From positions 13,928 through 77,927 of the forward strand of contig JAUVYB010000005.1 of NCBI GenBank assembly GCA_030603275.1: 64,000 nt of DNA, read 5' to 3'. The position numbers and the translations under genes are program-made. Positions 13,132 to 51,190 of the stretch are shown here, one piece after another (within the stretch, counting starts at the first letter, position 1; every line of letters begins with the position of its first letter). Source of the stretch: Deltaproteobacteria bacterium. GTDB lineage: Bacteria > Chloroflexota > Dehalococcoidia > Dehalococcoidales > BS750m-G39. Below the pieces are notes generated by a model, which saw nothing but the letters and a program-made list of their open reading frames with translations, searched no databases and had not been told where the DNA came from.

Positions 13132-15186
<2,055 letters not shown>

Positions 15187-21929: not shown

Positions 21930-22001
21930 GCCAGCGTAGCTCAGGGGTAGAGCAGCGGTTTCGTAAACCGCCGGTCGTCAGTTCGAATCTGACCGCTGGC
22001 T
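21930..22001 (+). tRNA. tRNA-Thr (anticodon CGT)
   Basis: Hand-folded cloverleaf: acceptor GCCAGCG/CGCTGGC, D arm GCTC/GAGC, anticodon stem GCGGT/ACCGC with loop TTCGTAA, T arm GTCAG-TTCGAAT-CTGAC. No encoded CCA. Confidence 0.93.
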
Positions 22002-22097: not shown

Positions 22098-22169
22098 GCC
22101 AGCGTAGCTCAGGGGTAGAGCAGCGGTTTTGTAAACCGCCGGTCGTCAGTTCGAATCTGACCGCTGGCT
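22098..22169 (+). tRNA. tRNA-Thr (anticodon TGT)
   Basis: Identical to the previous tRNA except for one base, C34 to T34 (anticodon loop TTTGTAA). Confidence 0.93.
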
Positions 22170-34393: not shown

Positions 34394-34420
34394 GTAATCT
34401 GGCAAAAACAGGGAATTGAC
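34394..34420 (+). promoter_or_regulatory. 11-bp-periodic pentamer repeats (GlnR-box-like) overlapping the -35 element
   Basis: GTAAT-ctggca-AAAAC-agggaa-TTGAC. The 16-mer GTAATCTGGCAAAAAC shares 12/16 positions with GTAATCTGTTGGAAAC upstream of amt. Confidence 0.4.
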
Positions 34421-34444
34421 AAAGAATATTGTATCTGATATGAT
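34416..34444 (+). promoter_or_regulatory. Sigma-70-like promoter of the long plus-strand operon
   Basis: TTGACA (34416-34421), 17-nt spacer, TATGAT (34439-34444). Confidence 0.6.
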
Positions 34445-34446
34445 GT

Positions 34447-34474
34447 GGTATACGGCAACCGTTGGCCGTATACC
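34447..34474 (+). promoter_or_regulatory. Perfect 10-bp inverted repeat at the predicted transcript start (operator or 5' hairpin)
   Basis: GGTATACGGC-aaccgttg-GCCGTATACC, immediately followed by the AGGAG Shine-Dalgarno of the GTG-initiated ferredoxin gene. Confidence 0.45.
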
Positions 34475-34484
34475 AGGAGTCTAA

Positions 34485-34952
34485 GTGAAAAAGGTCTACG
34501 TTAAGGAAGAGTTCTGTATCGGCTGCCGCCTCTGCGAGGTGTACTGCCAGCTTAAGCACGCCCGGTCAAAAGACCTGGTCAAGGCGTTCAACAGGGAATA
34601 CCCGCCGCCACTACCCAGAATCCGGGTGGACGAGAAGGGGGTGGTATCGCTATCGGTGCGATGCCAGCAGTGTGACGATGCCCCCTGTGTACAGGCCTGC
34701 CTTACCGGCGCACTCAGCCGCGACCCGGAGAGCCGGCTGGTCAATGTGGATGAGGATAGGTGCATCGGCTGCTGGACCTGCCTGCTGGTCTGCCCGCTGG
34801 CGGCGATAAAGCCGGATACGGAGCAGAAGAGGGCGCTCAAATGCGACCTCTGCCAGGGGGAGGAAGTCCCGGTCTGCGTGGCTAATTGCCCCAATGAGGC
34901 GCTGGTCTATGTTGAGGTGCCGGATGGGACTCCCGTGGCGGAAAACGGTTGA
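34485..34952 (+). CDS. 4Fe-4S dicluster ferredoxin-like protein
   Basis: 155 aa with four Cys clusters: CIGCRLCEVYC, CQQCDDAPC, CIGCWTCLLVC, CDLC......C..C. Confidence 0.85.
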   Translation: MKKVYVKEEFCIGCRLCEVYCQLKHARSKDLVKAFNREYPPPLPRIRVDEKGVVSLSVRCQQCDDAPCVQACLTGALSRDPESRLVNVDEDRCIGCWTCLLVCPLAAIKPDTEQKRALKCDLCQGEEVPVCVANCPNEALVYVEVPDGTPVAENG

Positions 34953-34973
34953 CCGAATAAAAGAGGGGGTGTT

Positions 34974-35345
34974 TTGATGTCACATAACTGGGGACCGCAT
35001 TATATTGTTCCTTCAGAGGTGATGAAGAAATATTCGGGGAATGTTTTATTGCGGGAGGAGCTTGACGAGGAGCTGCTGGGCAAGGAGCTGGCGGAGATGG
35101 GTCTCACCGGGCCTATCGTGCGGATAACCAACCCCTGGTACTACCGCCCGAAGAGCGCCAGTACCTGGATTAAGATAGGGGAGTCCCGGGACAAGCAGGA
35201 TAACTTTTCGGTGCGCTGGGATACCAACGGCCTGGCGAACGGGCAGTACGAGATACTGGGGTTGATGCATGTTTTTGTCAAGAAGAACGGTGAGGAGACA
35301 GCTATCGCCCGGGAAAACGTGGTGGAAATTACCGTCGAGAATTGA
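34974..35345 (+). CDS. Hypothetical protein (C-terminal Ig-like beta-sandwich suspected)
   Basis: 123-aa ORF in operon context. No motif recognised. Confidence 0.45.
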   Translation: MMSHNWGPHYIVPSEVMKKYSGNVLLREELDEELLGKELAEMGLTGPIVRITNPWYYRPKSASTWIKIGESRDKQDNFSVRWDTNGLANGQYEILGLMHVFVKKNGEETAIARENVVEITVEN

Positions 35346-35374
35346 ACTCGGGTGGACAGAGGGAAGGATTTTAG

Positions 35375-36001
35375 ATGATTGCCATAATAGATTATGGCGC
35401 CGGCAACCTGCGCAGCGTGGTTAACGCCGTCAGCCGCCTGGGCTATGAGGCCAAGGTTGTTAACCGCCCTGAAGAGGTTATTAGCGCCCGGGTGGTTATA
35501 CTGCCCGGGGTGGGGGCGGCGGCTGATACCATGGCTAACCTGCAGAAAACGGGGTTGGACAGCGCGGTTAAGCGCTATGTCGCTGAGGGGTGGCCATTCC
35601 TGGGGGTCTGCATCGGGATGCAGGTGCTGTTCGGCGGCACCGAAGAGGGCGGCTGGCATGAGTGCCTGGGCGTTATCCCCGGCGCGGTGCGCAGGTTTGC
35701 ACCGGGCTTAAAGGTTCCCCACATGGGCTGGAACCAGGTAAAGCAAAAGATTGCTCACCCCATCTTCGAGGGCATACCCGATGAAGCTAACTTTTATTTT
35801 GTCCACAGCTACTATGTTAAGCCGGAGGACGGGTCGCTGGTGGCCGGCGAGACCGAGTACGGCATCCCGTTCTGCAGTGTTGTAACTAAAGATAACCTGG
35901 TGGCCACCCAGTTTCACCCGGAGAAGAGTGGGGAGGTGGGGCTAAAAATTTACGATAATTTTATCAGGGTTGCCCTGGGAGCCAAAGCGGGCAGGCGGTA
36001 A
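35375..36001 (+). CDS. hisH: Imidazole glycerol phosphate synthase, glutaminase subunit
   Basis: 208 aa. IAIIDYGAGNLRSV, LGVCIGMQVLF (catalytic Cys), HMGWN, FYFVHSY, QFHPEKS. Confidence 0.93.
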   Translation: MIAIIDYGAGNLRSVVNAVSRLGYEAKVVNRPEEVISARVVILPGVGAAADTMANLQKTGLDSAVKRYVAEGWPFLGVCIGMQVLFGGTEEGGWHECLGVIPGAVRRFAPGLKVPHMGWNQVKQKIAHPIFEGIPDEANFYFVHSYYVKPEDGSLVAGETEYGIPFCSVVTKDNLVATQFHPEKSGEVGLKIYDNFIRVALGAKAGRR

Positions 36002-36004
36002 GAA

Positions 36005-37351
36005 ATGGCGATAGCAGAGAAAATAAAGTATTTGATTATCGGCAACTCGGCGGGTGGCATCGGCGCCGCCGAGGCCATCCGCGGGGTGGATAAGGCGGGG
36101 ACACTGGCTATCGTCTCCGACGAGCCCTACCCGGCCTACTCGCGGCCGCTTATCTCCGAGCACCTTTCCGAGGGGCGTTCTCTGGAGAGGATGCTCTACC
36201 GCCCGGCCGATTTCTACGAGCAGAATAAAATAAAAACCGTCTTCGGTGATACAGTGGCGCGAATTGATTTCGGTGGGCGTACCCTTGAGCTGGAAAGCGG
36301 CCGAACTATTGCCTGGCAGAAGCTGCTGCTGGCTACCGGCGGCTCACCTATCGTGCCCGGGATGGAGGGTAAAGATTTAAAGGGGGTTTTCACCTTTACC
36401 ACCCTTGATGATGCTAAAGCAATAGATAAGTTCCTGAAGCAGCGCCAGGGCAGGATAAAAGCGGTGGTCATCGGCGGGGGGCTTATCGGGGTGAGCGCCA
36501 CCGAAGCCCTGTTAAAGAGGGGGGTGGAGATCAGCATCGTCGAGATGAAGGACTGGGTTTTGAACACCATCCTTGATGAGGAGGCGGCGGCCCTGGAAGC
36601 GGCGGCTCTGAGCGGGGCTGGTGTTGACATAATAACCGGACATACCGTGGCTAAAATAAACAGCAGTCTGCTGGATGAGGTCAACGGCGTCAGCCTGGAT
36701 GATGGGCGGTCTATACGATGCGATATGGTTGTCGTCGCCATCGGAGTTACGCCGCGCCTTGACCTGGTGGCTGATAACGGGGTTAAGACCAACCGGGGCA
36801 TAATCGTTGACCGCCGTATGGCTACATCCGTACCCGGTGTCTATGCCTGCGGTGATGTTGCCGAGGCCTATGATTTCGTCTACGGGGAGAACCGGGTAAC
36901 GCCGGTCTGGCCCAACGCCTATACCGGCGGCCGGGTCGCCGGCCTGAATATGGCCGGTAAGAAGGCGGAATACGGGGGCGGGACGGCCATGAACGCCCTA
37001 AAGTACTTCGGGGTGAATATCCTTTCGGCGGGGATGGTGAACCCGCCCGATGACAGCTACGAAGTTATCAGCCAGAGGGGCGATGGTATCTATAAAAAAG
37101 TGATAATTAAAGACGGGAAGATACTGGGCATGGTCTTTGTCGGCGATATCGAGAAAGCGGGCATTATCTATAATCTAATGAAGGACGGGGTAAAGGTGGG
37201 GTCTTTTAAAGAAACGCTGGTTGCCGACGACTTCGGCCTTGCCTCTCTGCCGGAGAAAATCTGGCGTGCCCGGCTGGATATACCGGCTTCCGAGGAGGCT
37301 TCCATAGTGCCCCCGGTTGAGCCAGCCGAAGAAGAGGTCGTTGATGAATAG
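36005..37351 (+). CDS. FAD/NAD(P)-dependent pyridine nucleotide-disulfide-family oxidoreductase
   Basis: 448 aa. IIGNSAGGIGAAEA, second dinucleotide fold VIGGGLIGVSA, ACGDVAE. Confidence 0.8.
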   Translation: MAIAEKIKYLIIGNSAGGIGAAEAIRGVDKAGTLAIVSDEPYPAYSRPLISEHLSEGRSLERMLYRPADFYEQNKIKTVFGDTVARIDFGGRTLELESGRTIAWQKLLLATGGSPIVPGMEGKDLKGVFTFTTLDDAKAIDKFLKQRQGRIKAVVIGGGLIGVSATEALLKRGVEISIVEMKDWVLNTILDEEAAALEAAALSGAGVDIITGHTVAKINSSLLDEVNGVSLDDGRSIRCDMVVVAIGVTPRLDLVADNGVKTNRGIIVDRRMATSVPGVYACGDVAEAYDFVYGENRVTPVWPNAYTGGRVAGLNMAGKKAEYGGGTAMNALKYFGVNILSAGMVNPPDDSYEVISQRGDGIYKKVIIKDGKILGMVFVGDIEKAGIIYNLMKDGVKVGSFKETLVADDFGLASLPEKIWRARLDIPASEEASIVPPVEPAEEEVVDE

Positions 37352-37376
37352 CCTTGCTTTTAAGGAGAAGCTTTAA

Positions 37377-38512
37377 GTGAGAGATATCGGGCGGATAAAT
37401 AACCCTAACCAGGATAACAAGATAATCGACGCCTGCTCTATATTCGGGGCGATGGATACCACCGGTAAACGGTTTTCCGGCGAGGGCGTCATCAGGGCTA
37501 TCGCCAACATGCACGACCGTGGCAACGGGCTGGGCGGCGGCTTTGCCGTCTACGGCCTCTACCCCGATTACGCCAACCAGTACGCCTTTCACGTGATGTT
37601 CCTGAGCCAGCAGGGCAGGCAGGAGACGGAGGCGTTTTTAAAGGATAACTTTGACCTTATCGAGCAGCAGGAGGTGCCCACCCGGCTGGCGCCGCCGATT
37701 AAGCACCCGCCGCTGGTACGGCGCTATTTTCTTGACATAAATAAAAATAAGCCAGGCAAGCAGTCCGGGGATGACTATGTATTAGAAAAGGTTATGACCA
37801 TAAATACCAAATTATCCGACAGCTTTGTCTTTTCCAGCGGTAAGAACATGGGGGTATTTAAGGGGGTGGGCTACCCCGAGGAGATAGCCGATTACTTCTG
37901 TTTGGAGCAGTACCAGGGCTACCTCTGGACGGCTCACGGGCGGTTCCCCACCAATTCCCCCGGCTGGTGGGGTGGTGCGCACCCGTTCTGTATCCTGGAC
38001 TGGACGGTTATTCACAACGGTGAGATTTCGTCCTACGGTATTAATCGCAGGTATTTGGAGCAGTTCGGCTACCAGTGTACCATGCAGACCGATACCGAGG
38101 TGGTGGCCTACGCCGTCGACCTGCTGATGCGCCAGCACCACCTGCCGCTGGAGGTAGTGGCCAAAATCCTGGCACCGCCTTTCTGGAATACTATCGGGCG
38201 CCTGCCGAAAGAGGAGCAGAAGCTGATGCTGGCTCTGCGCCAGGTGTACGGCAGCCTGCTCCTGAACGGGCCCTTCGCCGTAATTATCGCCCACCACGGT
38301 GAGATGATTGGGCTGACCGATCGTATACGCTTAAGGCCGCTGACGGTGGGGGAGAAGGGTGATATGCTCTATCTATCTTCTGAGGAATCGGCAATCCGCC
38401 TGATAGCCCCGGAGCTGGATAAGGCCTGGATACCGATGGGTGGCCAGCCGGTAGTCGGCAGGCTGAAGGTGGGGGCTAAAAATAGAGTAACCGCCGGGGG
38501 GGGCGAAATAAG

Positions 38513-38519
<7 letters not shown>
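37377..38519 (+). CDS. Glutamate synthase, class II (Ntn) glutamine amidotransferase domain protein (archaeal-type split GltS)
   Basis: 380 aa. Catalytic Cys in [10 protein letters not shown] follows a short propeptide. HGRFPTNS and HNGEISSYG-type motifs. GTG start. Confidence 0.82.
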
Positions 38520-39289
<770 letters not shown>

Positions 39290-39293
39290 GACG

Positions 39294-40799
39294 ATGAAGA
39301 CCTATATAGCACCCAAGTTTTTAGTAAAGCGAGACCCGGAGCGCTGTATCCAGTGCCAGGTTTGTGTTAACCAGTGCAGCTTTGACGCTAATTACTATGA
39401 TGCCGAGGACAACGAGGTCAGGAGCCGCGAGGAGAACTGCGTCGGCTGCCACCGCTGCGAGGTATTTTGCCCCACCCAGGCGCTGACCATCAGCCGCAAC
39501 CCGCAGGAATATCGCGAGAACTATAACTGGCGCCCAGAGGTTATCGAAGATATCTTAAGGCAGGCCGAGACCGGCGGGGTGCTGCTGACCGGCATGGGTG
39601 ACGACAAGGGACAGAAGATTTACTGGGACCACCTGCTGCTCAATGCCAGCCAGGTGACCAACCCTTCTATAGACCCCCTCCGTGAGCCGATGGAGCTTGT
39701 TACCTGGCTGGGGCGGAAACCCGACCGGCTGGAGCTTGATGATAAATCACGGAATCTGAAAACGGAGCTGGCTCCCCAGGTGAGGCTGGAGGTGCCGGTG
39801 ATGTTTGCCGCCATGTCCTACGGGGCGGTGAGTCTTAATGTGCACCGGTCTCTGGCCCGGGCGGCTACCGAGATGGGTACCCTCTGGAACACCGGTGAGG
39901 GGGGACTGCACCCCAGCCTGTATAAATACGGCGATAACACCATTGTCCAGGTGGCTTCCGGGCGCTTCGGCGTGCAGGCCGACTACCTGAACGCGGGAAG
40001 GGTGGTCGAGATAAAAATCGGGCAGGGAGCCAAGCCGGGAATCGGCGGGCATTTGCCCGGGGAGAAGGTAAGCGCCGAGGTATCGTTAACCAGGATGATT
40101 CCCCAGGGCACCGACGCTATATCGCCGGCGCCGCAGCATGATATTTACTCTATTGAGGACCTGGCGCAGCTTATATACGCTTTGAAAGAGGCGACCAACT
40201 ACACCAAGCTGATATCGGTCAAGATTGCCGCCGTCCATAACGCGGCGGCTATCGCCAGCGGCATGGTGCGGGGCGGCGCCGATATTATCGTCCTTGACGG
40301 GCTCCGGGGCTCTACCGGTGCGGCGCCAAAGGTTATCCGTGACAATGTGGGCATTCCCATCGAGCTGGCGTTGGCCGCGGTTGACAGCCGTTTACGTCAG
40401 GAGGGCATACGCAACCAGGCCTCTATAGTGGTCTCCGGCGGCATCAGAAACAGCGGCGACGTGGCCAAGGCCATCGCCCTGGGGGCTGACGCCGTCTATA
40501 TCGGCACGGCGGCCCTCATTGCCCTGGGCTGCCATGTCTGCCAGCAGTGCCATACCGGCAAGTGCGCCTGGGGGCTCTGCACCACCGACCTCCGCCTGAC
40601 CAAGCGGGTCAATCCCGACATCGGCGCCCGAAGGCTGGCTAATTTGCTGCGGGGCTGGAGCATCGAGCTAAAAGATATACTGGGTGGGCTGGGGGTCAAC
40701 GCCATCGAGAGCCTGCGGGGCAACCGCCTGCACCTGAGAGGTGTTGGCTTAAGCGATACCGAGCTGGAAATTCTGGGAGTAGGGATGGCAGGGAGCTAG
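39294..40799 (+). CDS. Glutamate synthase FMN-binding/catalytic domain protein with N-terminal 2x[4Fe-4S] motif
   Basis: 501 aa. CIQCQVCVNQC and CVGCHRCEVFC. QGAKPG.GG.LPG.KV, GG.GA.P, CHTGKC-type 3Fe-4S region. Confidence 0.9.
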   Translation: MKTYIAPKFLVKRDPERCIQCQVCVNQCSFDANYYDAEDNEVRSREENCVGCHRCEVFCPTQALTISRNPQEYRENYNWRPEVIEDILRQAETGGVLLTGMGDDKGQKIYWDHLLLNASQVTNPSIDPLREPMELVTWLGRKPDRLELDDKSRNLKTELAPQVRLEVPVMFAAMSYGAVSLNVHRSLARAATEMGTLWNTGEGGLHPSLYKYGDNTIVQVASGRFGVQADYLNAGRVVEIKIGQGAKPGIGGHLPGEKVSAEVSLTRMIPQGTDAISPAPQHDIYSIEDLAQLIYALKEATNYTKLISVKIAAVHNAAAIASGMVRGGADIIVLDGLRGSTGAAPKVIRDNVGIPIELALAAVDSRLRQEGIRNQASIVVSGGIRNSGDVAKAIALGADAVYIGTAALIALGCHVCQQCHTGKCAWGLCTTDLRLTKRVNPDIGARRLANLLRGWSIELKDILGGLGVNAIESLRGNRLHLRGVGLSDTELEILGVGMAGS

Positions 40800-40801
40800 C
40801 A

Positions 40802-41560
40802 ATGGCGAGCAGAAAGAACTCAGTGGTTAAGATGGATGCCGGCGGCGTTTACTACCGGGAGCTTAACGCTAACTTAAGAAAAGCCGTTACCAACAGCACC
40901 CGCCGCATCGAGCTCCGCAACGTCTACGGGCAGAGGTACATCGGCACCGATTTGAATAAGCCGGTGGAGATTGAGATATTCGGCACTCCCGGTAACGACC
41001 TGGGGGCCTTTATGAACGGGCCCAGGATTATCGTCTGGGGCAACGCCCAGGACGGCTGCGGCAATACCATGAACGAGGGCGAAATAGTAATCCACGGCCA
41101 CGCCGGAGATATTATCGGGCTATCGGCGCGGGGTGGCAAAATCTTTGTCCGCGATGACGTGGGCTACCGGGCGGGCATCCATATGAAGGAGTACCGGGAT
41201 CGTAAGCCGGCGCTGGTTATCGGGGGCACCGCCCAGGACTTTGTCGGCGAGTATATGGCCGGCGGTGTGCTGATCCTGCTGGGCCTGAATTTAAAAGAGG
41301 GCGAGAGTCATAAAGCCAATTTTATCGGCACAGGCATGCACGGCGGCGTTATCTACCTGAGGGGAAGCGTCGAGGAGTACCAGCTGGGTAAGGAGGTAGG
41401 CGTCGCCCAGCTGGAGGACGCCGACCGTCAGGTTCTTAAGCAGCTGGTCGGCGAGTTCGCCGCCCACTTCGGCTACGATGCTGGCGAGATACTGAAGCAT
41501 AAGTTTATAAAGCTGTTTCCCCGCTGGCTGCGGCCTTACGGCCGGCTCTACGCCTATTGA
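40802..41560 (+). CDS. Glutamate synthase GXGXG-motif domain protein (GltB domain 3-like)
   Basis: 252 aa. Repetitive beta-helix pattern: G.AG...G..M.GG.I.V.G.AGD..G. Confidence 0.85.
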   Translation: MASRKNSVVKMDAGGVYYRELNANLRKAVTNSTRRIELRNVYGQRYIGTDLNKPVEIEIFGTPGNDLGAFMNGPRIIVWGNAQDGCGNTMNEGEIVIHGHAGDIIGLSARGGKIFVRDDVGYRAGIHMKEYRDRKPALVIGGTAQDFVGEYMAGGVLILLGLNLKEGESHKANFIGTGMHGGVIYLRGSVEEYQLGKEVGVAQLEDADRQVLKQLVGEFAAHFGYDAGEILKHKFIKLFPRWLRPYGRLYAY

Positions 41561-41575
41561 TGGGGGTGGACAATA

Positions 41576-42241
41576 TTGCGGCTGCTGATGATAGCTCAAG
41601 AAACCGGGGCGTTGGCCGAGTTGCGTTCCGAAATCGCTCGTAACGGCTTTGCCTGTGACATAGTTCCCCATGGTGAGGGGGTGCTTGAGGAGATAACCGT
41701 CCAACGCCCTGATTTAGTCCTGGTTGAGATGGGCGGTAACCTGCCCGCTGACGAGGTAGGGGAGCTCGTCCGGAGGCTGAAAGGGGAAAGGCGCCTGCCG
41801 GTTATAGCCCTGCTCCCCGGAGATACGCTGGACAGCCTTAACGGCAGTCTTGATGTTGATGATTTTATCACCAGCCCCTGCGATGCGCATGAGCTGGTCT
41901 TGAGAGCCAGGCGAGTTTTAAGCCGGGCCCGGAACATTGACGGCGGCGAGCTAATCAAGTGTGACGGCTTGTTGATAGACCTGGCCAAGTGTGAGGTGAT
42001 CCTGGAGGGCGAAATAATTGAGCTTACCTTTAAAGAGTATGAGATGCTAAAGTTCCTGGCCAGCCACCGGGGCCGTGTCTATAGTCGTGAAGCCCTGCTT
42101 AACAAGGTCTGGGGCTATGACTACTACGGTGGCGACAGGACGGTGGATGTGCATGTGCGGAGACTGAGAAGCAAGATTGAGGACGCAAAGCACACCTTCA
42201 TCGAGACGGTGAGAAATATCGGCTACCGCTTTAAGGTGTAA
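41576..42241 (+). CDS. OmpR/PhoB-family DNA-binding regulator with a degenerate (pseudo-)receiver domain; GlnR-like
   Basis: 221 aa, TTG start. The winged-helix half is conventional (LTFKEYEMLKFL...VWGYDYYGGDRTVDVHVRRLRSKI...VRNIGYRF). In the receiver half, QE replaces the acidic DD pair, Glu51 sits where the phospho-Asp should be (DLVLVEMGG), no Thr/Ser is seen, and DDFITSP replaces DDY.TKP. Confidence 0.8.
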   Translation: MRLLMIAQETGALAELRSEIARNGFACDIVPHGEGVLEEITVQRPDLVLVEMGGNLPADEVGELVRRLKGERRLPVIALLPGDTLDSLNGSLDVDDFITSPCDAHELVLRARRVLSRARNIDGGELIKCDGLLIDLAKCEVILEGEIIELTFKEYEMLKFLASHRGRVYSREALLNKVWGYDYYGGDRTVDVHVRRLRSKIEDAKHTFIETVRNIGYRFKV

Positions 42242-42282: not shown

Positions 42283-43872
42283 ATGTGCGGAATTGCTGGT
42301 TGTTACGGAGCTAAGGATGTTGAGACGGTAAACCGTATGCTCGATGCCATGGAGCACCGGGGGCCCGATGACCGTGGCGTCTATAACTTCAGTGGTGCTG
42401 TTTTAGGCCATACCAGGCTGTCCATCGTTGATGTGGCTGGCGGTCACCAGCCGATACTGACCGCCGACGGCCAAACAGGCATAATCTGCAACGGCGAAAT
42501 CTATAACTTTCGCCAGATTAGAGAGGGCCTTCCCCCCAGCTATGAGTTCACCACCGACTCCGACACCGAGGTCATACTGCACCTTTATCGGGAGAAGGGG
42601 CCGGAGTGCGTAAAAGAGCTGGACGGCATGTTTGCCTTCGCCATCATGGACGGCGGCAAATTATTGCTGGCCCGCGACTCAATCGGCATCAAGCCCCTAT
42701 ATTACGGCTATGCCGACGGCCGGTTTTATTTCTCCTCCGAGTTGGGTGCCATGACCCTGGCCGGAGTAGATGAGGTTCATGAGTTTCCGGCCGGCTCTTA
42801 CTACACGCCAGAGAGCGGCTTCGTTGAGTATTATAAGCTACCGGAGATTCGGGAGCACCTTCTGGCCGATTTTGATGAAGCCAGCCGCCTAATTAGGGAG
42901 ACCTTTATAGCAGCGGTTAAGAAGCGGCTGCTTTCCGATAAGCTGATTCACGTTGGCTCCTTCTGCAGCGGTGGCTTGGACAGCAGCCTGGTGGCGGCTA
43001 TCGCCGCCGAGGAAATCCCCAACCTGCACACCTTTGTCGTGGGCATGATAGACGCCGACGGTAACGAGAGTGACGACCTCAAGGCGTCCCGGATTGCCGC
43101 CGAACATATAGGCTCGACGCACCACGAGCTGATTTTCACCGAGGACGAGTACTACGAGGCACTGCCAATAGTTATCAAGAAGCTGGAGAGCTACGACCCG
43201 TCGCTGGTACGCTGTGCCGTACCCTGCTACTTCACCTGCAAGCTGGCCGCCGACTATGTCACCGTAGTGCTCACCGGTGAAGGCGCCGACGAAATCTTCA
43301 CCGGCTATCACTATATGAAGCACTATCCCACCGATGAGCTTAATGAGGAGGCGATGCGCTGTATCGGCAACCTGCATAACATCAACCTCCAGCGCGCCGA
43401 CCGCATGGGCATGCTCTTTAGCCTGGAGCTGAGAGTGCCTTTCCTGGATACGGCCATGATTGACCTGGCCACGAAGATTCCGCCCGAGCTTAAGATAAGG
43501 CAGTCCGAGGACGGCGAGAGCATGATTGAGAAGTGGATCCTGCGCAAGGCCTTCGAGGGGACGGGCTATCTGCCCGAAGAAATACTCTGGCGTTACAAGG
43601 TCCAGTACACCCAGGGGGCCGGATGCGAGAGCCTGGGGGAGAAGCTGGCCGAGTCGGAAGTGAGCGAGGATGAGTACCAGCGCATCAAAGCGGAGAACCC
43701 CGATGCCGTAATTAACAGCCGCGAGGCGGCCTACTACTTTAAGATATTCCGCGAGTTTCATCCGCAGGATTCGGTGCTCGGTTCTATCGGTATCTGGACC
43801 GGCTTTGACTTCGCTGAGGAAAGGGAGCAGGTGCAGGGAACAGTCGACGGTGACCTCAAACACGTGCGATAG
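42283..43872 (+). CDS. asnB: Asparagine synthase (glutamine-hydrolysing)
   Basis: 529 aa. N-terminal MCGIAG nucleophile, SGGLDSS PP-loop. Confidence 0.93.
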   Translation: MCGIAGCYGAKDVETVNRMLDAMEHRGPDDRGVYNFSGAVLGHTRLSIVDVAGGHQPILTADGQTGIICNGEIYNFRQIREGLPPSYEFTTDSDTEVILHLYREKGPECVKELDGMFAFAIMDGGKLLLARDSIGIKPLYYGYADGRFYFSSELGAMTLAGVDEVHEFPAGSYYTPESGFVEYYKLPEIREHLLADFDEASRLIRETFIAAVKKRLLSDKLIHVGSFCSGGLDSSLVAAIAAEEIPNLHTFVVGMIDADGNESDDLKASRIAAEHIGSTHHELIFTEDEYYEALPIVIKKLESYDPSLVRCAVPCYFTCKLAADYVTVVLTGEGADEIFTGYHYMKHYPTDELNEEAMRCIGNLHNINLQRADRMGMLFSLELRVPFLDTAMIDLATKIPPELKIRQSEDGESMIEKWILRKAFEGTGYLPEEILWRYKVQYTQGAGCESLGEKLAESEVSEDEYQRIKAENPDAVINSREAAYYFKIFREFHPQDSVLGSIGIWTGFDFAEEREQVQGTVDGDLKHVR

Positions 43873-43902: not shown

Positions 43903-43940
43903 GTAACATAAATTTAACCCCCCTGTAATCTGTTGGAAAC
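43903..43940 (+). promoter_or_regulatory. Four pentamer direct repeats at 11-bp periodicity upstream of amt (GlnR-box-like a-n6-b-n6-a-n6-b)
   Basis: GTAAC-ataaat-TTAAC-ccccct-GTAAT-ctgttg-GAAAC. Ends 47 nt upstream of the amt ATG. Confidence 0.45.
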
Positions 43941-43986
43941 AATCGCCTGTTAAGCTGGAGATAGTTGAAGCATTGGGGAGTTAAAG

Positions 43987-45393
43987 ATGACTATGGACTT
44001 GAGAAGCAAAGTGATGAGGATAACAATAAGAGGGGTGTTAACTTTTAGCCTTGTCTGTCTGTTGTGGCTGGCATGGGCGGCAATGAAAGGTAGTATAGCT
44101 TTGGCTGCTGATCCCACCGGACTAGGAGGCACGGCAGATGCGGCGATAGACTATGTGTGGATATTAGTCTGTGCCTTCCTGGTGATGTTTATGCAGCCAG
44201 GGTTTGCTATGGTCGGGGCCGGATTCACCCGGGCTAAGAATGCCGGGAACTTTATGACTAAAAACTTGATGGATTTTGTGATTGGCTCACTAACTTTCTT
44301 CTTCGTGGGTTATGCCCTGATGATGGGCGGCGACTGGCACGGTCTCTGGGGCACAGAAGGCTGGTTCATGCTTGGTGAGTATTATGATGTTGATGCTTAT
44401 CTCAATATGTTCTGGATGCTGGTCTTCTGTGCTACTGCTGCTACCATTGTCGCCGGTGCTGTCGCCGAGCGGCTGAAGTTTAAGGCTTATCTTATCTATA
44501 GTGTAGTAGTCAGTGCCATTATTTATCCCATCTATGGTCACTGGGTGTGGGGAGGAGGCTGGCTTTCCAGTCTGCCGCTCGGGCTAGGCGCTCTGGACTT
44601 TGCCGGTTCGGGGGTAGTTCATGCCGTTGGTGGTCTCGTTGGCTTAGCTGGAGCAATCGTTCTCGGTCCGAGGTTTGGCAGATATGATAAGAGCGGAAAG
44701 CCACGGGCAATCCCCGGGCATAGCATAACGCTGGCTACCCTGGGAGTCTTTATCCTGTGGTTTGGCTGGTTTGGCTTTAACCCGGGCAGTACTTGTGATG
44801 CGCACCATCTGAGAATATCGGTTATCGCCGTCAACACCAATCTGGCAGCGGCTGCCGGTGGACTGGCCGCACTCCTTGTAGCCTACTGGAAGACAAGGAA
44901 ATGGGATATAGGTATGCTTATCAATGGCATATTAGCCGGACTTGTCGCCATTACTGCCCCCTGCGCCTGGGTAGAGGGTTGGGCAGCAATTGTGATTGGT
45001 CTTATCGGTGGTGTGCTAATGTATGCCAGTGTCAAGTTCCTTGAAGCTAAGAGGATAGATGACCCGGTGGGGGCAGTGAGTGTGCACGGTGCTTGTGGTC
45101 TGTGGGGTCTGCTTAGCGTCGGTTTCTTTGCCGATGGAACCTATGGTAATTACTCAGTTGACGCACCATATGTCACCGGTCTATTTTACGGGGGGGGAGG
45201 TGAGCAGTTACTCGCCCAGCTTATCAGTGTAGTAGTGGTTGCCGTTTGGGCATTCGGTATGGGCTACCTAACTTTTAAGCTAATGAATAAGGCTTTTGGC
45301 ATTCGTGTATCCCCTGAAGAGGAGCTGCAGGGATTGGATATCCCCGAGCATGGCGCACCAGCTTATCCCGACTTTATTACTAAGCAAAGTTAG
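43987..45393 (+). CDS. amt: Ammonium transporter
   Basis: 468 aa. FMQPGFAMV, D.AG..VVH..GG, W.GW.GFN, multiple TM helices. Confidence 0.95.
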   Translation: MTMDLRSKVMRITIRGVLTFSLVCLLWLAWAAMKGSIALAADPTGLGGTADAAIDYVWILVCAFLVMFMQPGFAMVGAGFTRAKNAGNFMTKNLMDFVIGSLTFFFVGYALMMGGDWHGLWGTEGWFMLGEYYDVDAYLNMFWMLVFCATAATIVAGAVAERLKFKAYLIYSVVVSAIIYPIYGHWVWGGGWLSSLPLGLGALDFAGSGVVHAVGGLVGLAGAIVLGPRFGRYDKSGKPRAIPGHSITLATLGVFILWFGWFGFNPGSTCDAHHLRISVIAVNTNLAAAAGGLAALLVAYWKTRKWDIGMLINGILAGLVAITAPCAWVEGWAAIVIGLIGGVLMYASVKFLEAKRIDDPVGAVSVHGACGLWGLLSVGFFADGTYGNYSVDAPYVTGLFYGGGGEQLLAQLISVVVVAVWAFGMGYLTFKLMNKAFGIRVSPEEELQGLDIPEHGAPAYPDFITKQS

Positions 45394-45429
45394 GTCAGCG
45401 GCAATATGGAATAAGGGGGCGTGAAGAAA

Positions 45430-45768
45430 ATGAAGAAGATAGAGGCGATAATTAGGGTAGAGAAATTTGAGGAGGTGAAGGAAGCTTTGAAGGAATTGGG
45501 CTACCCTGGAATGACCAAGACCCTCGTTGAGGGTCATGGCAAGCAGAAAGGGCTTAAGCAACAGTTTCGCGGTACAACATTTGAAGTAGAAATGGTGCCC
45601 AAGTTAAAACTGGAAATTGTAGTGCTTGACGAAGATGTATCTAGGACACTCGCGGCTATCGTCAGAGGTGCTAGGACTGATGATGTCGGTGACGGCAAGA
45701 TTTTTGTCCTGCCGGTGGAGCATGCGGTGCGCGTCCGCACCGGTGATATAGACGAAAATGCCGTCTAG
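45430..45768 (+). CDS. glnB: P-II family nitrogen regulatory protein
   Basis: Start at MKKIEAIIR gives the canonical 112 aa. GDGKIFV. The T-loop reads GHGKQKGLKQQFRGTTF, so Phe sits where enterobacterial P-II has the uridylylated Tyr51. Confidence 0.93.
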   Translation: MKKIEAIIRVEKFEEVKEALKELGYPGMTKTLVEGHGKQKGLKQQFRGTTFEVEMVPKLKLEIVVLDEDVSRTLAAIVRGARTDDVGDGKIFVLPVEHAVRVRTGDIDENAV

Positions 45769-45880
45769 GCAGGTTGCGAGGTGTAGCAGTATGTAGTACA
45801 TTGATGATAATAAGTACATTGATTGTAAAATAGCTAAATTCTATAAATAAAAATAAGTATTACCAAAGGAGGTGGTAACA

Positions 45881-47224
45881 ATGGCCAACAGGAGCAGGGA
45901 AGAGGCTAATGATTATATTTTAAAGATGGCCAAGGAGCATGATGTTAAGTTTATCCGGCTGTGGTTTACCGATATACAGGGTATACTAAAGAGCTTTGCC
46001 ATCACCGTGGAAGAGCTGGAAGGAGCCATGACCGAAGGGATGGGCTTTGACGGGTCGTCAATTCAGGGATTTGCCCGGATTGATGAGAGTGATATGGTGG
46101 CCCTGCCTGACCCGGATACCTTTCAGCTGCTGCCCTGGAGGCCGCGTGAGCACAATGCCGTGGCCCGCATGTTCTGTGATGTCTTAAGGCCGGGGGGCGA
46201 GCCTTTTGAGGGTGACCCCAGATTTGTCCTTAAGAGGAACCTGAAGCGGGCGGCCGACCTGGGCTATACTTTTTATGTGGGACCGGAACTGGAGTTCTTC
46301 TATTTTCAGGATTCCGAGAGCACCGTGCTGCTGGACCAGGGAGGCTACTTTGATTTGACTCCGCGGGATGCCGCTATCGAGATGAGGAAGGATACCGTTC
46401 TGGACCTGGAGGATATGGGTATCGGCGTTGAGTATTCCCACCACGAAGTCGCCCCCAGCCAGCATGAAATAGACATGAGGTATACCGATGCCCTGACCAT
46501 GGCCGATAACGTGATGACCTATCGCCTTGTTGTCAAAGAGGTAGCCTTCAGGCATGGCGTCTATGCCACCTTTATGCCCAAGCCCGTCTTCGGCATCAAC
46601 GGCAGCGGCATGCACGTTCACCAGTCGCTTTTCAATGGCGACCGGAACGCCTTCTTTGATAAAGCTGATGAATACCATCTGTCCAAGATAGCCAGGAGCT
46701 ATATAGCCGGACTGCTGGCACACGCTCCCGAGATTACGGCGGTGACCAACCAGTGGGTCAACTCTTACAAGCGGCTGGTTCCCGGTTACGAGGCGCCGGT
46801 ATACCTGTCTTGGGCGCGGCGCAACCGCTCTGACCTTATCCGAGTCCCGGAGTACCGGCCGGGCAGGGAAAAGGCGACCAGACTTGAATACCGCTCTCCC
46901 GACCCGGCCTGCAACCCCTATCTGGCCTTCAGTGTCATGCTGGCCGCCGGGCTGGAGGGAATTGAGAAGGGCCTGGAGCCGCCTCCGCCGGTAGAAGAGA
47001 ATGTCTATGAGATGTCCGTAGAGGAAAGGCAGAAGCGGGGCATAGGCACCCTGCCGGCCAGCCTGCTGGAAGCCATACTGTTAGCCGAGAAGAGTGAGCT
47101 AGTGCGCAAGGCTCTTGGCGACCATGTTTTTGAGGCTTTCATCCAGAACAAGAAGATAGAGTGGGGAAATTACCGCGCTCAGGTAACCGAATACGAGCTG
47201 AAGAAGTACCTGCCCATATTATAA
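45881..47224 (+). CDS. glnA: Glutamine synthetase, type I
   Basis: Start at MANRSREE (AAGGAGG lies 8 nt upstream). FTD..G, GFDGSS, GPE.EFF, HHEVA..Q.E, NGSGMH.H.S. Confidence 0.95.
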   Translation: MANRSREEANDYILKMAKEHDVKFIRLWFTDIQGILKSFAITVEELEGAMTEGMGFDGSSIQGFARIDESDMVALPDPDTFQLLPWRPREHNAVARMFCDVLRPGGEPFEGDPRFVLKRNLKRAADLGYTFYVGPELEFFYFQDSESTVLLDQGGYFDLTPRDAAIEMRKDTVLDLEDMGIGVEYSHHEVAPSQHEIDMRYTDALTMADNVMTYRLVVKEVAFRHGVYATFMPKPVFGINGSGMHVHQSLFNGDRNAFFDKADEYHLSKIARSYIAGLLAHAPEITAVTNQWVNSYKRLVPGYEAPVYLSWARRNRSDLIRVPEYRPGREKATRLEYRSPDPACNPYLAFSVMLAAGLEGIEKGLEPPPPVEENVYEMSVEERQKRGIGTLPASLLEAILLAEKSELVRKALGDHVFEAFIQNKKIEWGNYRAQVTEYELKKYLPIL

Positions 47225-49075: not shown

Positions 49076-50086
49076 ATGGAGAAACTGATGGCGGAACAGG
49101 TTGTCGGCTCCGATGCCGAAGGTAAGCTAATATCCATCCTTAAAATCTTAAGCGAGTCATCAGAAACACTGGGGTCAATCACTATCGCCCGGCGGCTTGC
49201 GGGCGAGGGGGTTTTCTTGAGTGAGAGGGCGGTGAGGTATCACCTGAGGATAGCCGACGAGCGCGGCTATACCCAGCCGGCAGGCCGGGACGGGCGGATG
49301 ATTACTCCCAAAGGGCGGCAGGAGGTTAAGGAGGCCTTAGCCCCGCAGCACCTGGGTTTCGTGCGCGAGAAGCTGGAGATGCTGGCCTACCAGACCACCT
49401 TCGACCCGGTAAAACGCAGCGGCCAGTTGCCCATAAATACGTCACTTGTTGATAAGGATAAGTTCAAAAAGGCGCTTTCGGCGATGAAGGACGCCTTTAA
49501 GGCCGGGATTTGCGTAAGCGAGCTGGTGGCCACGGCGTCAGAGGGAGAGAAGCTGGGGGCGGCGGTTGTGCCCGCTGGTAAAATTGGTTTTGCCACCGTT
49601 TGCAGCGTGGTGACCAACGGTGTGCTGCTAAAGTCTGGTGTCCCTATGGAATTCAGGTTTGGCGGCGTGCTCGAAATCAGAAATTCCAAGCTGAGGCGAT
49701 TTGTGGCCATAATTGACTATGCCGGTACCTCCGTCGACCCCTCCGAGCAGTTTGTCCGGGCTAAGATGACCAGCGTTGGCGAAGCCTCCCGGACGGGGAG
49801 TGGCAAGATACTGGGCGTTTTCAGGACGATACTGGCGCCGGCCAGGGAAATCTTCGAGGAGAAGGTAGCCCTGCTTAAAGAGGTGGGCATCGGCGGTGTC
49901 TATGCCGTGGGCGATACCAGTGAGCCGCTCTGCCAGATTCCGGTAGTCCTGAACCGGATTGGCATTGTTCAGTTGGGTGGTCTTAATCCGGTGGCGGCCG
50001 CCGTTGAGGCTGGAATCGAGATTGAAAACGTGGCCGAGAACGGTTTGATTGATTTCCAGGAGCTGCATAGTTTCTGGGAGCTTTAG
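49076..50086 (+). CDS. nrpR: NrpR-type nitrogen regulator (winged HTH + one NRD/DUF128 domain)
   Basis: 336 aa. LISILKILSES...LGSITIARRL...LSERAVRYHLRIADERGY....GR.GR.ITPKG..E, then LGFV..K.E.L.Y.TTFD, matching my recollection of methanogen NrpR. Confidence 0.72.
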   Translation: MEKLMAEQVVGSDAEGKLISILKILSESSETLGSITIARRLAGEGVFLSERAVRYHLRIADERGYTQPAGRDGRMITPKGRQEVKEALAPQHLGFVREKLEMLAYQTTFDPVKRSGQLPINTSLVDKDKFKKALSAMKDAFKAGICVSELVATASEGEKLGAAVVPAGKIGFATVCSVVTNGVLLKSGVPMEFRFGGVLEIRNSKLRRFVAIIDYAGTSVDPSEQFVRAKMTSVGEASRTGSGKILGVFRTILAPAREIFEEKVALLKEVGIGGVYAVGDTSEPLCQIPVVLNRIGIVQLGGLNPVAAAVEAGIEIENVAENGLIDFQELHSFWEL

Positions 50087-50098
50087 TTACGGCGTTAT

Positions 50099-51190
50099 TT
50101 AGCCGGGTATATTTACTACCAGAGTTGTCCCTTTGCCTGGTGTTGACTTTACTTCAAGAGTGCCACCCAACAGCCGAGCCCGCTCCCGCATTCCAGCCAG
50201 TCCCAGCTTCCCGCTGCGGGGGAGGTCGTCAACGCCTCCCCGCAGTTCAAAGCCCTGGCCGTTGTCGGTTATGGTCACCTTGACTTCGTCTCCGCCGAAC
50301 TCCATTGCCACCTGCGCCTCAGAGGCGTGGGCATGCCGCCTGATATTGTTGAGCGCCTCCTGAACTATGCGGAAGAGCAGTAGCTCAACTTCAGGCGTGA
50401 AACGCCTTTCTCCGCCGAGTATCTTTAGTTCGGCATCTATTCCGTCGGACTCTTGCAAGCCCTTGACCAATGACCTAACTGCCGGGATTAAGCCTAAATC
50501 GTCCAGCAGGGACGGGCGCAGGTCTTGAACGAAGCGCTGCATACTCTGCAGCCCGCGATTGAGCTGGGTCTGCAGGTCTTTGAGGAACAGGACCTCATTG
50601 GAAGCGAAGCCATGCTTCTTCCTGATGAAGTTATCCAGTTGACGCGAAAGAGAACTCAGCACCTGAGCCGTATCATCATGAAGCTCCCGGGCAATACGTT
50701 TCCGCTCCTCCTCCTGAGCCTTGGTTATCTGCTGTAGATGGTGGCGCAGGTTTTCTTCGGCACGCTTTCGCTCGGTGGCGTCTTCCAGGGTCTCGATGGC
50801 GCCGATTATCTTTCCGGCTTTATCTCTGATGGGGCTGGCGGTAAAGTGAAGCCACCTTCCGTTTTTGCCGAGGTCTAGGAAGAAGTCTTCGGCTTCATAG
50901 GCGCCGTCAAGCAACCGGGATTTTTTACACATGCCTTGATAATATGTCTCAATTTCGTTTTCCCGGGCTCCGTCCACCATTAAATCGGCCATAGTCGGCC
51001 TTTTTTCGCTGTAGAATGCCCGCCACTGCTCATCGGTGTCGATTATCTTGTCCCTTTTTAAACCGGTAAGGGCTTCAATGGCTATGTTCCAGTAGATAAC
51101 CCGGTGCTGATTATTGATGACAAACGAGGGAATAGAAGAGCCATCAATAATCTTAGCCAGCATTTCCGAGCCCAGTAGACTTTGAGCCAT
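50099..51190 (-). CDS. Sensor histidine kinase (PAS + HisKA_3 + HATPase_c), cytoplasmic
   Basis: 363 aa. H-box ARELHDDTAQ, N-box EALNNIRRHA, G-boxes DNGQGF and GLAGMRERA. Confidence 0.85.
   Translation of the reverse strand: MAQSLLGSEMLAKIIDGSSIPSFVINNQHRVIYWNIAIEALTGLKRDKIIDTDEQWRAFYSEKRPTMADLMVDGARENEIETYYQGMCKKSRLLDGAYEAEDFFLDLGKNGRWLHFTASPIRDKAGKIIGAIETLEDATERKRAEENLRHHLQQITKAQEEERKRIARELHDDTAQVLSSLSRQLDNFIRKKHGFASNEVLFLKDLQTQLNRGLQSMQRFVQDLRPSLLDDLGLIPAVRSLVKGLQESDGIDAELKILGGERRFTPEVELLLFRIVQEALNNIRRHAHASEAQVAMEFGGDEVKVTITDNGQGFELRGGVDDLPRSGKLGLAGMRERARLLGGTLEVKSTPGKGTTLVVNIPG

Follow-up and report, generated by a model that had tools for sequence, protein, structure and literature searches.

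The 64,000-nucleotide stretch of DNA analysed here (the window; positions 13,928 to 77,927 of contig JAUVYB010000005.1) carries a cluster of nitrogen-assimilation genes on its forward strand, within which lies an open reading frame (ORF) for a GlnR-like regulator of the OmpR/PhoB family (41576-42241, 221 residues from a TTG start). The regulator gene is the next cistron after a glutamate synthase operon (34485-41560), beginning 16 nucleotides past the preceding stop codon, and has no promoter of its own in the window. Downstream on the same strand follow asnB, encoding a glutamine-hydrolysing asparagine synthase (42283-43872), amt (43987-45393), glnB (45421-45768), glnA (45872-47224), nadE for a glutamine-dependent nicotinamide adenine dinucleotide (NAD) synthase, and the gene for a homologue of the repressor NrpR (49076-50086, 336 residues). 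An array of four direct pentamer repeats (43903-43940) occupies the gap between asnB and amt. Judged from its sequence, the regulator probably belongs, as a distant member, to the GlnR branch of the OmpR/PhoB regulators; amt, glnB and glnA are its predicted targets.

An earlier note on this DNA had described an OmpR-family regulator with a standard winged helix and a degenerate receiver, encoded between glutamate synthase and asnB-amt-glnB-glnA with no kinase gene beside it, and this description is borne out in each part. The winged-helix DNA-binding domain (approximately residues 125-221, 41948-42238) scores 98.6 bits against Pfam Trans_reg_C (cut-off 26.2), and the pseudo-receiver (residues 1-120, 41576-41935) reaches 18.4 bits against Response_reg, below the cut-off of 30.2. 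NCBIfam names no family for the protein, its best models (MtrA, PhoB and YycF) all falling far under their cut-offs, and such proteins appear in the public databases under no other names than "response regulator transcription factor", "OmpR family regulator" or "PhoP". Receiver positions were read from a HMMER alignment to RegX3 and from an alignment with 256 homologues. The acidic pair is represented by Gln8-Glu9, the phospho-accepting Asp by Glu51 (GAG codon at 41726-41728), the Thr/Ser by Pro81 and the Lys by Ser100, and about six additional residues follow Glu51. Among the 121 homologues of at least 63% identity, 119 have Glu at the acceptor position, and the other catalytic positions are likewise all non-canonical. 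As to translation, the ancestral ATG start (ATG TTG CGG in the related locus L081) reads ATA in the window (41573-41578), so that translation must begin at the next TTG or at the rare ATA codon.

The sole kinase gene nearby (50099-51190, reverse strand) is of the HisKA_3 type and adjoins a canonical NarL-type regulator that retains Asp11, Asp56, Ser84 and Lys106; the earlier note had likewise called this pair, at 50.1-51.9 kb, canonical. The pair is missing from an otherwise syntenic locus, L003. Since the nearby kinase pairs with the NarL-type regulator and the pair is absent from L003, the GlnR-like regulator is an orphan, judged by its neighbourhood. No conserved kinase lies near the regulator gene in any locus compared, a distant kinase being possible. 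In its receiver residues, its Response_reg score and the lack of a neighbouring HisKA-type kinase, the protein departs from canonical response regulators.

The array upstream of amt has the form of a GlnR box, with an 11-bp period: GTAAC (43903-43907), TTAAC (43914-43918), GTAAT (43925-43929) and GAAAC (43936-43940) are separated by six nucleotides each (GTAAC-n6-TTAAC-n6-GTAAT-n6-GAAAC, forward strand). Ten nucleotides past the last pentamer stands a -10-like hexamer, TAAGCT (43951-43956); if this hexamer spans -12 to -7, the pentamers are placed near -60, -49, -38 and -27. No -35 hexamer is present at the amt promoter, and a scan for consensus sigma-70 promoters finds nothing there. The box is the sole such array in the window, where the four-unit pattern is expected 0 times. 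Its weight-matrix score is 30.6, and the next best score in the window, 18.8, comes from the same site in a shifted register; pattern and weight-matrix scans found no further boxes in the window. A second matching box, proposed in the earlier note at 34394-34420, was rejected: it scores 8.6 on three units where the amt box scores 24.3, seven positions of the window do as well, and it is absent from the related loci L001 and L003.

Fifteen related loci, the genome and contig loci first collected, keep the order glutamate synthase, regulator, (asnB), amt, glnB, glnA, nadE, nrpR down to a regulator identity of 53%, with asnB found in only some of them; the exceptions are L009, without amt-glnB, and L014, without glutamate synthase genes 5' of the regulator. 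The array is kept in these loci while its flanks diverge, so the box claimed earlier at this site stands. Only the proximal pair of pentamers is kept in L008 and at the first amt of L014, and in L009 the array precedes glnA. L014 has two amt genes with a box before each. The amt product of the window is approximately 34% identical to that of most related loci (e.g., L001, L003, L007) and 87-91% identical to that of L010, L011 and L015: the type of amt transporter was exchanged while the upstream box stayed.

A metagenome collection was also scanned for the box pattern, which was found on at least 120 contigs, with 121 matches listed. Among the matches listed, the first downstream ORF is amt in 80 and glnA in 5, and the contig ends in 18. 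A regulator homologue (42-86% identity) lies directly 5' of the box in at least 60 of the listed cases, asnB takes this place in 4 more, and a divergent glutamate synthase operon does so in 6. A TAnnnT hexamer recurs exactly 10 nucleotides after the last pentamer (T 94%, A 87%, T 96% in 109 non-redundant boxes), at positions that are outside the search pattern. The downstream ORFs of four listed matches without a nitrogen context encode two PstS-type binding proteins, one porin-like protein and one PHP-domain protein (L016, L132, L046, L056), and L105 carries a box and an ORF length equal to those of L016. In L016, L105 and L132 (G+C content 0.34-0.42) the four-pentamer pattern stands before PstS-type phosphate-binding genes, with no regulator homologue nearby; these arrays are probably pho boxes of unrelated organisms. 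The matches without a nitrogen context are together taken as background and pho-box look-alikes, and none as a member of the regulon.

The solved structures closest to the regulator are 8hig_A, 8hih_O and 8hml_A. According to PMC10235972, 8HIH shows GlnR of M. tuberculosis in its transcription activation complex, and 8HML shows the DNA-binding domain of S. erythraea GlnR bound to DNA; 8hig_A goes unnamed in that paper, but its residue numbers agree with those given there for S. erythraea GlnR. The GlnR element consists of a(gTnAc)-n6-b(GaAAC) twice, with the consensus GTAAC and with the b2 site lying downstream from the -35 element, and is contacted at its bases by R186, V190, R193 and R194 (S. 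erythraea numbering) and also at its phosphates (PMC10235972). Aligned to 8hig_A, the window regulator is identical to GlnR at all of the listed base- and phosphate-contact residues. By BLAST, its DNA-binding half, which the earlier note had likened to that of GlnR, is 51-54% identical to GlnR and 46% to PhoB. A family profile built from 39 box-linked members gives 172 bits for S. erythraea GlnR, 165 for M. tuberculosis GlnR and 156 for RegX3. By this profile the DNA-binding domain of GlnR on its own has 149 bits, against 116 for VicR and 101 for PhoB. In 100 of 100 bootstraps of a neighbour-joining tree with four outgroups and a biased ingroup, GlnR groups with the family and the nearest cluster representatives at 50% identity, PhoB, RegX3, MtrA and VbrR falling outside.

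The Pfam model for the N-terminal domain of GlnR, GlnR_1st (PF21695), gives weak matches in 26 of the 39 family members. Dehalococcoidia-labelled proteins from metagenome-assembled genomes (MAGs) were found among the relatives of one high-GC family member. The relatives P0321, P0341, P0349, P0355 and P0389 pass the GlnR_1st cut-off at 27.7-35.4 bits, and no Response_reg match was found in them, except for a sub-threshold match of 18 bits in P0349. P0321, P0341, P0349 and P0375 score 132-142 bits to the better-matching of two GlnR fragments and 92-109 to PhoB or RegX3, and they are 39-43% identical to the window regulator over its full length. P0375, just below the GlnR_1st cut-off, and P0312, with no GlnR_1st match, are encoded by stand-alone genes directly 5' of amt-glnB-glnA, with a box of the same four-pentamer kind in front. 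The top structure matches, the retained contact residues, the GlnR-type box at amt and the linkage of regulator, box and amt-glnA all speak for the suggestion, first made in the earlier note, of a GlnR equivalent outside Actinobacteria.

Modelled with AlphaFold2, the regulator has a (beta-alpha)5 fold in which strand 3 ends with Glu51, at a mean predicted local distance difference test (pLDDT) score of 67. Foldseek searches with this model returned generic OmpR/PhoB regulators without singling out GlnR, and among the matches was 2jb9, the constitutively active PhoB D10A/D53E receiver. Ratios of non-synonymous to synonymous substitution against eleven relatives are 0.16-0.5 for the pseudo-receiver and 0.05-0.17 for the DNA-binding domain, being undefined for the most diverged; the pseudo-receiver is under purifying selection, looser than that on the DNA-binding domain, and is not decaying. 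The family conserves Asp95-Asp96-Phe97, with Asp95 present in no fewer than 90% of its sequences, as well as Glu106, Arg110 and Arg113; these residues correspond to the alpha4-beta5-alpha5 dimer face of OmpR/PhoB proteins. The phospho-site residue of box-linked regulators may be E, D, A, N, T, V or Y, Lys100 is kept in some of them, and receivers are degenerate in nearly all of the 150 nearest cluster representatives. Glu51, together with a gene joined into the glutamate synthase operon, marks the sub-clade of the window regulator. The free variation of the acceptor site across the box-linked family argues that this residue is not needed as an acceptor and, together with the conserved Asp95-Asp96-Phe97 and Glu106/Arg110/Arg113 face, fits a receiver retained for dimerization rather than phosphotransfer. 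The regulator is therefore probably independent of phosphorylation.

The best sigma-70-type promoter of the region (34416-34444, forward strand; TTGACA-17-TATGAT with a TG extension) drives the glutamate synthase/regulator operon. Directly 3' of its -10 element lies an inverted repeat, GGTATACGGC-n8-GCCGTATACC (34447-34474, forward strand), with the conserved core CGGCAA-n4-TTGCCG, which occupies an equal place in ten loci, distant ones among them, counting the window (L004, L007, L010, L012, L014, L015, L050, L081, L087). In L014, which has no glutamate synthase genes at this point, the repeat stands just upstream of the regulator gene. One arm of the window repeat has a T-to-G change with no compensating change. 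The repeat could be a repressor operator or a 5' hairpin; its position directly after the -10 suits the former, and no Rfam RNA family matches at the palindrome or elsewhere in the cluster.

The ORF at 49076-50086 has the architecture of the NrpR family, with scores of 252.6 bits for NRD1_2 and 58.9 bits for HTH_12. This homologue at the end of the nitrogen cluster, absent from the earlier note, has its own extended -10 promoter, TGGTATAAT, conserved in several related loci. Many metagenome contigs carry an nrpR copy directly 5' of the GlnR-like gene, and some carry two copies. In methanogens, nif and glnA are repressed by NrpR, which responds to 2-oxoglutarate, and homologues in Dehalococcoides were noted in 2007 (PMC1852104). 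Its presence in the cluster means that the GlnR-like protein is not the only nitrogen regulator encoded here. The inverted repeat is possibly an operator for NrpR; its 14-bp span and outer GG and CC resemble the methanogen NrpR operator, GGAA-n6-TTCC.

Our preferred reading, to which we assign a probability of about three in four, is that the regulator is a phosphorylation-independent, GlnR-family activator of amt-glnB-glnA; both DNA binding and activation we infer from the sequence. The pseudo-receiver would have kept its fold and lost its phosphorylation chemistry, serving as a constitutive or otherwise-regulated dimerization module and not as a kinase-driven switch. Four protomers are predicted to bind head-to-tail to the four pentamers upstream of amt, the array standing in for the missing -35 element. 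Because the array would replace this element, the regulator would recruit RNA polymerase and so activate amt-glnB(-glnA), in the arrangement known from the solved complex of M. tuberculosis GlnR with the amtB promoter. A weaker supposition, less probable than not, is that its amount is set by the promoter of the glutamate synthase operon, whose palindrome may be an NrpR operator.

Several points weigh against this reading. The regulator scores 14 bits against GlnR_1st, below the cut-off of 27, and by BLAST its receiver half is nearer to RegX3 (30%) and PhoB (29%) than to the N-terminal domain of GlnR. The recognition helix, RTVDVH(V/I)RRLR, is also present in E. coli PhoB (the PhoB sequence being entered by hand), and so the protein sequence alone does not fix specificity. 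Two outgroup sequences of the tree were entered by hand and its ingroup was picked by similarity to the query, while the structure model is of moderate confidence (pLDDT 67). Look-alikes of pho boxes, as repeat arrays before pstS-like genes, can satisfy the same pattern. The case for an NrpR operator is built on where the repeat lies, on its palindromic form and on its likeness to the methanogen operator consensus. Finally, with one box in 64 kb a broad regulon is not shown; of the undescribed nitrogen regulon suggested earlier, the amt-glnB(-glnA) target is visible and a wider set is not seen in the window.

Some of these points would be explained if the protein were a functional analogue and not a homologue of GlnR, a regulator of PhoB/RegX3-like origin that lost its phosphorylation residues on its own and converged on a GTAAC-type site. 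The affinities of the receiver half, the GlnR_1st score and the shared recognition helix all favour this, as do full-length scores that are nearly equal for GlnR (120 bits) and PhoB (119 bits). The intermediate Dehalococcoidia proteins argue the other way, since they have the box and the amt-glnB-glnA context, pass GlnR_1st and lie distinctly nearer to GlnR than to either PhoB or RegX3. GlnR heads the ranking by the family profile, the tree separates the outgroups in every bootstrap, and the four-site geometry equals that of GlnR, including a site downstream of the -35 position. We therefore consider convergence unlikely and homology with GlnR the better account.

If the regulator binds the box, it might still repress amt-glnB-glnA by occluding the promoter, induction then being relief from repression. 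The box does cover the -35 region, and OmpR-family proteins, GlnR included, can repress some promoters. Yet the lack of a -35 consensus beside a well-conserved -10 is what would be expected of an activator-dependent promoter, and the box ends 10 nucleotides before the -10, as in the GlnR activation complex and in pho boxes. Six GlnR residues contact the RNA polymerase beta flap in the GlnR structure (PMC10235972); by our reading of the alignments the His, Arg and Val among them are identical in the regulator, Tyr-to-Phe and Phe-to-Tyr are conservative exchanges, and Gln is replaced by Ala. Repression is thus improbable at this promoter, and activation remains the preferred reading.

A further account would have the box bound by NrpR or by a PhoP/PhoB-type regulator, with the adjacent OmpR-type gene controlling something else. 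An NrpR homologue is indeed encoded in the cluster, often directly 5' of the regulator gene, and box-like arrays occur before pstS-like genes in unrelated contigs. Direct repeats of 11 bp are, however, the binding mode of OmpR/PhoB winged helices, NrpR operators being palindromic, and the conserved GlnR-type residues read GTAAC, which the pentamer matches. Box and regulator also stay linked where no nrpR is nearby (L136, L137), and we regard a different binder as very improbable. Least credible of all is an ordinary phosphorylation-dependent response regulator served by a kinase encoded elsewhere and using another acidic acceptor: some wider family members do retain the site Asp and Lys at position 100, and many close homologues have Asp53, two residues past Glu51, but the window regulator has Glu51 and Gly53 and keeps neither the acidic pair nor the Thr/Ser nor the Lys. 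Across the family the residue at the site varies freely, and none of the loci has a conserved kinase near the gene.

The preferred reading may be extended to include NrpR. A cascade from NrpR through the GlnR-like activator to ammonium assimilation is a tentative proposal, which we hold to be somewhat less probable than an even chance would make it. More doubtful again is a hybrid two-tier circuit in which a 2-oxoglutarate-sensing NrpR of archaeal type would gate the glutamate synthase operon by way of the CGGCAA-n4-TTGCCG palindrome and thereby dose an always-active, GlnR-type activator of amt-glnB-glnA with Glu51 as phosphomimic, the GlnR lineage being older and common to Chloroflexota and Actinobacteria. 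If this were true, the GlnR lineage would not be an actinobacterial invention, and its members would form a natural series with E, A, N, T, V or Y at the phospho-site.

The distribution of the regulator was surveyed in one genome for each GTDB species, the query being an alignment restricted to the pseudo-receiver. Twelve loci were recovered, eleven of them from Dehalococcoidia or Dehalococcoidales MAGs. The twelfth, L004 (JABMRW010000047.1), is the closest genome match, with a regulator of 85% identity, and is labelled "Deltaproteobacteria bacterium bin.571"; this label probably reflects a mistake in binning or classification. With these loci the window shares 75-98% identity in its glutamate synthase, glnA and nadE proteins, and it therefore most probably comes from a Dehalococcoidia genome.

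The operon 5' of the regulator encodes, in order, a ferredoxin, a 123-residue protein (34974-35345), hisH (35375-36001), a flavin adenine dinucleotide (FAD) oxidoreductase carrying a Rubredoxin_C domain, a glutamate synthase amidotransferase domain, hisF (38513-39289), a flavin mononucleotide (FMN) domain and a GXGXG domain. Glutamate synthase is here split, archaeal-style, into three domain genes with hisF among them. Thus hisH and hisF, whose product imidazole glycerol phosphate synthase is a glutamine amidotransferase, are interspersed among the genes of the split glutamate synthase, and glutamine-using enzymes (hisH/hisF, asnB and the glutamine-dependent nadE) are gathered in the cluster. 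The 123-residue protein, an uncharacterised companion of the nitrogen cluster with no Pfam or NCBIfam family, is 46-89% identical across related clusters and has sometimes moved beside glnA or nadE (L052, L066, L060, L126). Two transfer RNA genes (21930-22001 and 22098-22169, forward strand) are the sole Rfam matches in the window.

GlnR has been treated as specific to Actinobacteria. The PNAS paper on GlnR describes it in Actinobacteria only, and within the literature searched no GlnR-type regulator is reported for Dehalococcoidia or Chloroflexi/Chloroflexota, papers outside it being possible. Nor is the transcriptional control of nitrogen assimilation in Dehalococcoidia described in that literature. 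As far as that literature goes, what would be new is the occurrence in a second phylum of a GlnR-family regulator whose acceptor site carries Glu or other residues and whose gene lies beside its target and together with that of an NrpR homologue. The class includes organohalide-respiring organisms used in bioremediation and lineages abundant in the subsurface and the sea. A concrete regulator, a 38-bp candidate operator and a target operon are now directly testable, and the GlnR type of regulator would be extended to a second phylum. The family also offers a natural set of receivers in which the phospho-acceptor has been replaced in many ways and the output kept, useful for understanding how response regulators become kinase-independent, and the cluster hints at an interplay, within a bacterium, with an NrpR repressor of archaeal type.

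Among known systems, euryarchaeal NrpR is matched in its HTH plus NRD1_2 architecture by ORF 49076-50086, a protein separate from the regulator. H. pylori HP1043/HsrA (2hqr), Chlamydia ChxR and cyanobacterial NblR, all OmpR-type and independent of phosphorylation, are, like the regulator, orphans with a winged-helix output and a degenerate receiver, which serves them, and probably the regulator too, for dimerization; their targets and sites are unrelated to its own, and their sequences are much less similar to it (49 bits for 2hqr against 114 for GlnR). PhoB of E. coli and PhoP of B. subtilis share with it tandem 11-bp direct repeats that replace the -35 and end approximately 10 nucleotides before the -10, PhoB also shares the recognition helix RTVDVHIRRLR, and the PhoB D10A/D53E receiver (2jb9) mirrors the natural Gln8/Glu51 state. 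PhoB and PhoP are, in contrast, phosphorylated by PhoR and control phosphate genes, whereas the regulator lacks receiver chemistry and its predicted targets are nitrogen-assimilation genes.

GlnR itself comes closest, with differences that are readily named. The glnR gene is a stand-alone gene for a global regulator of Actinobacteria, whereas the gene described here, probably from the Chloroflexota (class Dehalococcoidia), is embedded in a glutamate synthase operon and adjoins its target. The regulator coexists with an NrpR homologue and has one visible target promoter, its receiver is too diverged for GlnR_1st, and it has Glu51 where GlnR has Asp50. The latter, according to the title of a reference cited in PMC10235972, is conserved, unphosphorylated and used in charge contacts of the dimer. 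In common with GlnR, the regulator is built of two domains in the OmpR/PhoB manner, has an atypical receiver and lacks a partner kinase, and its Dehalococcoidia relatives carry the Pfam GlnR N-terminal domain. In both systems four GTAAC-like pentamers lie six nucleotides apart, the last site falls past the -35 position next to a good -10, and the flagship target is amt/amtB with glnA.

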